DNA from: a virus
Taxonomy: Duplodnaviria > Heunggongvirae > Uroviricota > Caudoviricetes
Virus record (IMG/VR): IMGVR_UViG_2695420646_000007
Direction: 5' to 3' (one strand)
DNA length: 14,203 nucleotides
Positions 11,803 through 12,762 of this stretch are shown in pieces. Within the stretch, counting starts at the first letter, position 1; the number at the start of each line of letters is the position of its first letter. The position numbers and the translations under genes were made by a program. The notes beneath the pieces were generated by a model. That model had not been told where the DNA came from. It made no database searches and was given only the letters and a program-made list of their open reading frames with translations.

Positions 11803-12762
11803 ATGATAAAAAAACCTGTGATTGGAATCAGCGGTTGTTTGGCCGGTTCTGCTGTTCGTTTTGATGGTGGTCACAAAAGAGCTGACTTTTTAATGGACAA
11901 ATTAGTGGAATGGGTAACATTCAGACCAGTATGTCCGGAAATGGCTATAGGGCTGCCAGTTCCGCGTCCTGCTCTACGTCTTGTGCGCTCGACGCAAGGA
12001 AATATACGGATGTGTTTCAGCCACGACCAGAATGAGGATGTGACAGAGAGAATGACAGAGTTTAGTCGTTCTTATATGGACAAATTAAAGGATGTATCGG
12101 GGTTTGTGGTTTGTGCTAAATCTCCCAGCTGTGGCATGGAGCGCGTGCGTGTCTATGATGAAAATGGTAATCGAGGTCGTAAAGATGGAGTGGGACTATT
12201 TACGAGCACTTTGATGGAAAAGTTTTCCTGGCTACCGGTTGAAGAGGATGGGCGATTACATGATCCAGTGCTTCGTGAGAATTTTGTTGAAAGAGTTTTT
12301 GCTTTGCATGAGCTCAATCACCTTTACAAGGAGAAATTATCAAGAAGAGAGTTATTAGCTTTTCATAGTCGTTATAAGCTTCAGTTGTTGGCGCATAGTC
12401 AGGCAGGCTATAAAGATATGGGACCATTTGTGGCTGCAATACACGAGTGGGCGGACCTTGAATCATACTTTGAGGTGTATCGTGATAAGCTGATGGCGAT
12501 TCTCAGAAAACCTGCATCACGTAAAAATCACACGAATGTGCTGATGCATATACAGGGGTATTTTAGTAACTACTTAAGTACACGCCAGCGTAAAGAGTTG
12601 AGCGAGGTTATACTTAACTATCGTTCTGGCACATTACCTCTTCTTGCGCCGTTGACTCTGCTGAAGCATTATCTGGGTGAGTATCCTAATGATTACTTGC
12701 TTACACAGAATTACTTCGATCCCTATCCGGACGAACTGGCTCTAAGACTGATGGTAAATTAA
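11803..12762 (+). CDS. Fused DUF523 (TudS-like, candidate [4Fe-4S] thiouracil desulfidase) and DUF1722 (YbgA-like) protein
   Basis: 319 aa; strong RBS AAGGGGGAG. N-terminus MIKKPVIGISGCLAGSAVRFDGG is typical of DUF523; Cys12, Cys44 and Cys104 are at positions close to those I recall as cluster ligands in TudS. The longer C-terminal part is called YbgA-like by length and memory of the fused family. Confidence 0.7.
   Translation: MIKKPVIGISGCLAGSAVRFDGGHKRADFLMDKLVEWVTFRPVCPEMAIGLPVPRPALRLVRSTQGNIRMCFSHDQNEDVTERMTEFSRSYMDKLKDVSGFVVCAKSPSCGMERVRVYDENGNRGRKDGVGLFTSTLMEKFSWLPVEEDGRLHDPVLRENFVERVFALHELNHLYKEKLSRRELLAFHSRYKLQLLAHSQAGYKDMGPFVAAIHEWADLESYFEVYRDKLMAILRKPASRKNHTNVLMHIQGYFSNYLSTRQRKELSEVILNYRSGTLPLLAPLTLLKHYLGEYPNDYLLTQNYFDPYPDELALRLMVN

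Follow-up and report, generated by a model that had tools for sequence, protein, structure and literature searches.

A probable tRNA 4-thiouridine desulfidase gene, rudS, between Q and the holin gene of a lambdoid prophage, and its carriage in Escherichia coli

The 14,203-nucleotide stretch of DNA analysed here (hereafter the window) is IMG/VR virus record IMGVR_UViG_2695420646_000007, which belongs to the Caudoviricetes. Its open reading frame (ORF) at 11803-12762 on the plus strand most probably, with a probability that we put at about 0.9, encodes RudS, a [4Fe-4S]-dependent eraser of 4-thiouridine in tRNA (s4U8), as judged from its domains, its conserved residues and its close similarity to an assayed phage enzyme. 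The gene is intact, and yet it is not new, since the family, its chemistry and a phage-borne representative have already been published and assayed. An earlier note on this DNA, made from the letters alone, had described the ORF as a candidate thiouracil desulfidase of the TudS type fused to a YbgA-like domain and carried by a prophage.

Identity of the gene and its protein

The ORF is a real gene, as the earlier note had supposed: it has an ATG start with a Shine-Dalgarno sequence (GGGGGAG) directly 5' of it, and encodes a protein of 319 amino acids (aa) with the N-terminus MIKKPVIGISGCLAGSAVRFDGG. Two Pfam domains were identified, both far above their cutoffs. The segment aa 7-149 matches PF04463, the "2-thiouracil desulfurase" family once called DUF523, with 137.9 bits (cutoff 34.7; E 3.1e-40). 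The segment aa 192-309 matches the whole 117-position profile of PF08349 (DUF1722) with 138.2 bits (cutoff 22.5; E 1.9e-40). The fusion of a DUF523/TudS-type domain with a YbgA-like domain is thus borne out. It is this architecture, a TudS domain and DUF1722 on one polypeptide, that defines RudS, the tRNA 4-thiouridine desulfidases (Jamontas et al., Nucleic Acids Res 2024, PMC11417400). Among the assayed members is RudS_vir, the product H3V29_gp66 of Escherichia phage 1H12 (NC_049947; PMC11417400), with which the window protein shares 298 of 319 residues (93%) in a gapless alignment, and none of the 21 differences falls at a catalytic or cluster residue. A protein in RefSeq, WP_000592546.1 of E. 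coli AR_0369, is 100% identical to the window protein.

The two domains also occur in stand-alone proteins, from which the window protein can be told apart. E. coli YbgA (b0707) is homologous to its C-terminal domain, but is a stand-alone DUF1722 protein of about 169 aa, without the catalytic domain and without effect on tRNA s4U (PMC11417400). The window protein passes no NCBIfam model, its best matches lying below the curated cutoffs: the YbgA equivalog model NF007549, with a cutoff of 237 bits, matches aa 160-315 only and scores 190.8 bits (E 1.4e-56), and TudS_rel_CD3072 reaches 18.3 of the 130 bits required. TudS itself (DUF523Vcz; PDB 6Z92, 6Z93, 6Z96 and 6ZW9) shares with the window protein the fold of the N-terminal domain, to which it is about 26% identical, as well as the three Cys ligands and the catalytic Glu/Ser/Ser. 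It differs in size, with a single domain of about 150-166 aa, and in activity, as its substrates are free thiouracil and 4-thio-UMP and it causes no drop of tRNA s4U in vivo, whereas the window protein adds DUF1722. A stand-alone TudS is a single domain that gives rescue on both 2- and 4-thiouracil; the window protein has 319 aa and a second domain, and for RudS_vir the rescue on 4-thiouracil is delayed and that on 2-thiouracil is lacking (PMC11417400).

Cluster cysteines, catalytic residues and predicted fold

Three cysteines, Cys12, Cys44 and Cys104, had been proposed in the earlier note as the ligands of the [4Fe-4S] cluster. All of them are present in the protein, and Cys12 and Cys44 stand as ligands, but Cys104 does not. 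Diverse relatives were collected from a library clustered at 50% identity (6575 matches at E <=0.001, 1170 of them at E <=1e-30), and conservation was counted in a MAFFT alignment of 140 full-length sequences, which are representatives of 50%-identity clusters. Cys is found at positions 12 and 44 in 138 of these relatives each and at position 110 in 136, while position 104 holds Cys in only 11 and Lys in 76. The putative catalytic residues are equally well kept, with Glu46 in 139 relatives, Arg55 in 138, Ser107 in 139, and Ser109 in 131 (Thr in 6 more).

A profile of 67 diverse sequences matches TudS 6Z92 (E 8.6e-15, profile positions 5-116) over a range that spans both the CPE and the SPSC motifs. 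Cys12 is aligned with TudS Cys10, and Cys44-Pro-Glu46 with Cys43-Pro-Glu45, and the SPsCG of the profile pairs with S101-P-S103-C104-G of TudS, the window counterpart being S107-P-S109-C110. Because the SPSC motif aligns with the motif of TudS Cys104, the third ligand is, according to this alignment, Cys110 and not Cys104, and the latter is best read as a lineage-specific residue whose number equals that of the TudS ligand by coincidence. The same three cysteines, Cys12, Cys44 and Cys110, are listed as the conserved ones of RudS_vir in Table 1 of PMC11417400, and the Salmonella enzyme RudS_ST is likewise listed with Cys12/44/110. The Cys-to-Ala variants of RudS homologs were inactive with one exception from Thermus, and C44A and C110A constructs of RudS_vir are listed in the supplement (PMC11417400). 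Other searches against the PDB stopped short of the third cysteine: a single-sequence phmmer search paired only aa 6-66 with TudS, a profile of close enterobacterial homologs (at least 70% identical) likewise did not reach the third ligand, and the C-terminal half of the catalytic domain alone yielded only chance matches to ribosomal proteins.

In RudS_KT of Pseudomonas putida (PP_0741), activity was abolished by mutation of E51, S111, S113, R60 and the three cysteines (PMC11417400). The former four correspond to E46, S107, S109 and R55 of the window protein and the cysteines to C12, C44 and C110, as located by motif offset and not by an alignment with RudS_KT. In addition, R24, G27, R64, E152, R155, S243 and R244 of RudS_KT have been implicated in tRNA contact (PMC11417400), and their counterparts by motif are R19, G22, R59, E148, R151, S239 and R240.

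The AlphaFold2 model of the window protein built on the diverse alignment has a predicted local distance difference test score (pLDDT) of 96 and a predicted template modelling (TM) score of 0.93, and replaced an earlier run on a shallow alignment (pLDDT 65), which was discarded. When the model was compared with the PDB by Foldseek, the sole significant matches were five TudS entries (probability 1.00, target-normalised TM 0.71-0.73, 155 aligned columns, 25-26% identity). The DUF1722 half is modelled as helical with high confidence, and neither the profile search nor Foldseek found a solved structure in the PDB that resembles it.

Published activities of RudS enzymes

All RudS enzymes assayed in E. 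coli, that is, RudS_vir and five others, lowered tRNA s4U upon overexpression, while stand-alone TudS and YbgA caused no drop (PMC11417400). The suggestion in the earlier note that s4U of tRNA might be a substrate has therefore gained support from an enzyme 93% identical to the window protein, whereas thiouracil desulfidation, which it had placed in its headline, does not hold as the main activity. A uracil auxotroph was rescued on 2-thiouracil by no RudS, and on 4-thiouracil RudS_vir gave rescue only after a lag, the shortest among the RudS enzymes; none of them, RudS_vir included, matched TudS in supporting growth on 4-thiouracil (PMC11417400). As for the second domain, DUF1722 binds the anticodon region of tRNA (PMC11417400).

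RudS_vir is the same as the window protein in length (319 aa), in the cluster cysteines and in the cassette and slot of its gene (Q, lipocalin on the minus strand, rudS, AraC-like, holin). The differences are the 21 substitutions and the state of the carrier, 1H12 being an intact phage record and the window copy lying in a decayed prophage. RudS_KT and RudS_ST (Salmonella STM1389/ORF319) also have the two domains, the cluster ligands and the catalytic Glu/Ser/Ser/Arg, but their genes are chromosomal, in light-responsive or MerR/LitR-regulated contexts (PMC11417400), while the phage copy in the window has an AraC-like gene instead of a MerR neighbour. Salmonella ORF242, beside ORF319, was considered as a counterpart of this AraC-like gene and rejected, as its product is a MerR-family regulator (PMC11417400).

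The cargo cassette and its prophage

The features of the window that concern rudS are listed in Table 1. The window represents the early-right arm of a lambdoid prophage, so that the prophage location given in the earlier note is confirmed. Pfam identified Gam, an S24/LexA-type cI repressor with a helix-turn-helix domain, YbcO and antiterminator Q; comparison of the ORF list with the RefSeq annotation of the matching prophage of E. coli AR_0369 (L001) adds Cro-like, CII-like, O/P-like, NinB/YbcN and RusA proteins, the P-like ORF being matched by the "replication protein P" of L001. Between Q and the holin gene essD there is a cargo cassette of three genes, encoding a Blc-type lipocalin (minus strand), RudS (plus strand) and an AraC-like regulator (plus strand), and a hairpin lies between Q and the first of them.

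Table 1. Features of the rudS region in the window, with the evidence for each of them.
Feature	Coordinates	Strand	Evidence
rudS, probable tRNA 4-thiouridine desulfidase (TudS domain + DUF1722)	11803..12762	+	Pfam, RudS_vir identity, alignment, fold model; PMC11417400
TudS/DUF523 catalytic domain, aa 7-149	11821..12249	+	PF04463, profile vs 6Z92, Foldseek
Predicted cluster ligands Cys12, Cys44, Cys110	11836-11838, 11932-11934, 12130-12132	+	
Predicted catalytic residues Glu46, Arg55, Ser107, Ser109, in TudS/DUF523 domain		+	
DUF1722 domain, aa 192-309, all-helical, predicted tRNA-binding module (binding per PMC11417400)	12376..12729	+	PF08349
Antiterminator Q, left border of cargo slot	10538..10930	+	PF06530 Phage_antitermQ, E 2.5e-51; RefSeq "antiterminator Q family protein" in L001
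Intrinsic-terminator-like hairpin and T-run, 3' of Q, just past the 3' end of convergent blc	11029..11052	+	Sole terminator-like site in 10400-14203
Blc-type lipocalin, 174 aa, lipoprotein-like N-terminus, divergent from rudS, first cassette gene	11086..11610	-	PF08212 Lipocalin_2, E 7e-44; phrog_2809
Divergent blc/rudS intergenic region, 192 base pairs (bp)	11611..11802	.	Conserved among phage and prophage copies
AraC-family regulator gene, frameshifted	13114..13844	+	195-aa ORF left at 13257-13844
Holin essD, 5' part, right border of cargo slot	14033..14123	+	Cut at 14124 by the end of IS66-family element ISEc23

The cassette is also distinguished by its composition: the GC content is 31-43% across 11001-14000, while the early and replication regions mostly lie at about 50-55%. 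In the related phages ev243 and mEp332, the place of the cassette is taken by a porin gene or by hypothetical genes. With its position in the slot between Q and lysis genes, its deviant composition and its lack in otherwise related phages, the cassette is a lambdoid cargo (moron) element. From its position, the hairpin appears to occupy the place of lambda tR', and the region between blc and rudS is presumed to hold the cassette's own promoters. A scan for sigma-70-like promoters gave weak matches only, no more than in shuffled sequence, and we claim no promoter; no RNA family of Rfam was found in 10400-14203.

The state of the AraC-like gene results from a T-run ending near 13229, which holds 7 T compared with 8 T in L001. 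The protein is intact, with 243 aa, in L001 and in phage 1H12, and the form in L001 contains PF12833 and PF00165 and matches phrog_1450. The frameshift could be a real pseudogene, homopolymer slippage or a sequencing error. At the right border, the sequence from 14124 onward is identical over 84 of 84 bases to the terminal sequence of annotated ISEc23 copies, and this essD/ISEc23 junction is absent from every complete E. coli genome in the collection. With its holin cut by this insertion sequence (IS), the prophage copy in the window is probably unable to lyse its host.

Two further inserts were found elsewhere in the window. On the minus strand at 1791-3442, directly downstream of the cI repressor gene, there is a two-gene insert of low GC content (33-41%), at the position of rexAB in lambda. 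Its products, a HipA_2-like kinase (PF20613, 282 aa) and a DUF3037 protein (PF11236, 268 aa), give weak hits to PDC-M03A and PDC-M66B, which are candidate defence families, and match PHROGs 3162 and 5137, both of unknown function; they may form a prophage defence or toxin pair. On the plus strand at 7382-8873, between the ren region and ninB, two extra genes encode a 250-aa DUF4145 protein (phrog_1305, "DNA binding protein") and a 160-aa protein without Pfam family (phrog_27260, unknown function), neither of which has a PADLOC match.

Distribution in E. coli and selection

It has been stated that E. coli lacks TudS and RudS homologs (PMC11417400). Despite this statement, rudS is a common cargo of E. 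coli, brought by lambdoid prophages: it is covered to at least 80% in 1064 of 5426 complete genomes, and 1188 of the 1190 matching places are chromosomal. By their best match, 624 records reach an identity of at least 99%, another 402 fall within 95-99% and 110 within 90-95%. The 3.8 kb that run from Q to essD reach a coverage of at least 80% in 952 genomes. Among phages, 12 records encode a full-length RudS, of which that of IdasGreatGrand is 99.7% identical to the window protein and the other eleven (the 1H12/"Lambda_ev" set) are 93.4% identical. The earlier note had regarded such an enzyme as unusual phage cargo, which does not agree with its presence in about one fifth of the complete E. 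coli genomes or with the fact that RudS_vir had already been cloned and assayed. A literature search that paired RudS with prophage returned only irrelevant papers, and no description of a prophage-conferred rudS in E. coli was found in it.

In the sampled copies, the order Q, blc (minus strand), rudS, AraC-like and holin is kept in differing lambdoid backbones. These are a prophage beside bioA/ybhB, one that has Qin-type neighbours such as ydfU and cspI, and one that lies on a record of 217 kb with a plasmid annotation. Comparison of the window allele with that of 1H12 gave a ratio of nonsynonymous to synonymous substitution rates (dN/dS) of 0.11, which shows that the phage copies of rudS are under purifying selection; in comparisons with the Citrobacter and Kluyvera orthologs the synonymous sites are saturated, and no value was obtained. 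Some variants were also observed. In E. coli NZ_LR890334.1 (H31), IS1 splits rudS into a DUF523-only part and a YbgA-like part, and one 403-aa E. coli protein (P0002) joins RudS to a GGDEF domain (PF00990).

Chromosomal relatives and the origin of the cassette

Chromosomal RudS orthologs of the Enterobacterales are 55-77% identical to the window protein, with a closer set at 70-77%, and the gene neighbourhoods of 80 enterobacterial loci were compared. In Citrobacter, Klebsiella, Serratia and others (L003-L005, L008-L014), rudS ends a conserved operon that encodes an SDR protein, an amine oxidase, DUF1365, a CFA-synthase-like methyltransferase, DUF2878, an unannotated 175-aa protein and DUF3833. 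In 13 of the 80 loci, from Enterobacter, Leclercia, Lelliottia, Huaxiibacter, Buttiauxella, Raoultella and Kluyvera, a Blc-type lipocalin gene, whose product is 74-82% identical to the phage one, is located upstream and on the opposite strand of rudS. For example, the two genes of Kluyvera cryocrescens (L031, 3352-4960) are directly divergent and 113 bp apart, like the phage pair, while in Enterobacter (E. intestinihominis, L017, 2021-4960) the genes of an MlrA-type MerR regulator and a transthyretin-like protein lie between lipocalin and rudS. Because the divergent pair exists on chromosomes, the blc/rudS pair of the phage looks like a captured chromosomal pair that has left its MerR regulator behind.

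A homolog of the AraC-like gene is absent from the 80 chromosomal rudS loci except L035, which is apparently a prophage-derived contig. This locus is filed under a "Candidatus Nanosynbacter" metagenome-assembled genome, and its rudS fragment and AraC-like gene show 94% and 98% identity, respectively, to the cassette of the E. coli prophage. Another locus, filed as "uncultured Clostridiales" (L012), carries the Citrobacter-type rudS operon. Both contigs appear to be of enterobacterial origin and to have been binned by mistake into metagenome-assembled genomes of unrelated organisms. We also found a Salmonella enterica allele of rudS (L006/L007, P0030), 74% identical to the window protein, which adjoins genes for an ATP_bind_3 (TtcA-like) protein and a DbpA-like helicase, together with DUF1367, Usp and porin genes. 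These surroundings resemble the attachment region of a Rac-type prophage, which would point to a prophage remnant as one more location of rudS.

Alternative explanations

Several points weigh against the reading of the ORF as an active eraser of tRNA s4U that matters to the lysogen. The window allele is separated from the assayed RudS_vir by 21 residues, and its own activity is predicted from the sequence. RudS_vir desulfidated tRNA less than RudS_ST did at similar protein levels (PMC11417400), and with its short lag on 4-thiouracil it may lean somewhat to free thiouracil compounds. The relief of the growth delay caused by ultraviolet A (UVA) was demonstrated with RudS_KT rather than with the phage enzyme (PMC11417400). 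Besides, the prophage copy in the window looks decayed, with its frameshifted AraC-like gene and IS-disrupted holin, and expression of rudS from the prophage is presumed, the promoter scan having done no better than shuffled sequence. The first points could be taken to mean that the enzyme is a TudS-like one that serves chiefly the salvage or detoxification of free 4-thiouracil, 4-thiouridine or 4-thio-UMP and less the modification of intact tRNA, and the catalytic domain is indeed a true TudS fold with every catalytic residue in place. However, no RudS grew the auxotroph on 4-thiouracil as TudS did, and all of them lowered tRNA s4U while stand-alone TudS did not (PMC11417400). Moreover, the tRNA-binding DUF1722 domain has been kept, in a gene that as a whole is under purifying selection. 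Consequently, we consider a salvage enzyme improbable.

The decay of the window prophage, together with the IS1-interrupted copy in E. coli H31, raises the question of whether rudS is a passive passenger, captured with the lipocalin gene from an enterobacterial chromosome, unexpressed and of no benefit to phage or lysogen. The divergent pairs of Kluyvera, Enterobacter and others make such a co-capture plausible. A mere passenger is very unlikely, however, in view of the number of E. coli genomes and phage records with the gene, the dN/dS of 0.11, the intact catalytic residues and the occurrence of the cassette in the same slot across several phage backbones. The slot between Q and the holin gene often holds conflict or virulence cargo, and the enzyme might accordingly serve phage-host conflict rather than light protection, the altered host tRNA being a means to escape or set off a defence directed at tRNA, or to reprogram translation. 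The circumstantial evidence for this is that two tRNAs were about 2-fold less abundant upon RudS_KT overexpression (PMC11417400). On the other hand, none of the three cassette proteins matches a defence model in PADLOC, and the chromosomal orthologs are found in light-responsive or MerR-regulated contexts. In addition, we know of no defence system that depends on s4U, and a role in conflict has, in our view, just as slender a chance as the passenger.

Proposed mechanism and possible role

In the TudS/RudS literature, three cysteines hold a [4Fe-4S] cluster, the free iron takes the thione sulfur, and a water activated by Glu replaces the sulfur (PMC11417400). For the window protein read as RudS, Cys12, Cys44 and Cys110 would hold three irons of the cluster and the fourth iron would bind the sulfur of a flipped-out s4U, while Glu46, positioned by Ser107, Ser109 and Arg55, would activate a water for attack on C4, which would yield uridine with release of sulfide. 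The helical C-terminal DUF1722 would grip the tRNA by its anticodon arm.

It is known that s4U is a near-UV sensor, since UVA cross-links s4U8 of tRNA to C13, which leads to a growth delay and a burst of ppGpp, and overexpression of RudS_KT lessened this growth delay (PMC11417400). Less of the photosensitive s4U in host tRNA would accordingly mean less UVA-induced cross-linking, less growth delay and a weaker stringent response. As rudS is co-oriented with the late operon downstream of Q, read-through dependent on Q is expected after induction, and transcription from a promoter of its own in the 192-bp region is possible in lysogens. It is plausible that rudS would benefit the lysogen in sunlight or, once UV has induced the prophage, the synthesis of late proteins. 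More tentatively, and as an idea that is more probably wrong than right, we propose that the cassette is an induction-coupled insurance of translation. The sunlight or UV that triggers prophage induction through the SOS response would also cross-link s4U8 to C13 and stall translation, and RudS, produced from the late operon through Q or in the lysogen, would strip s4U and sustain late protein synthesis; about one fifth of E. coli strains would then be RudS-positive and differ in their UVA physiology.

Public annotation trails the literature on this family. RefSeq labels the protein "YbgA family protein" or "DUF523 and DUF1722 domain-containing protein", NCBIfam gives matches below the cutoffs, and in PHROGs each cargo protein has a full-length family, phrog_3275 (RudS), phrog_2809 (lipocalin) and phrog_1450 (AraC-like), all three with "unknown function". 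The finding reveals no new kind of system, as the enzyme, including a phage copy 93% identical, has been published. Differences among E. coli strains in the level of s4U in tRNA and in the response to UVA could be a trait conferred by prophages.

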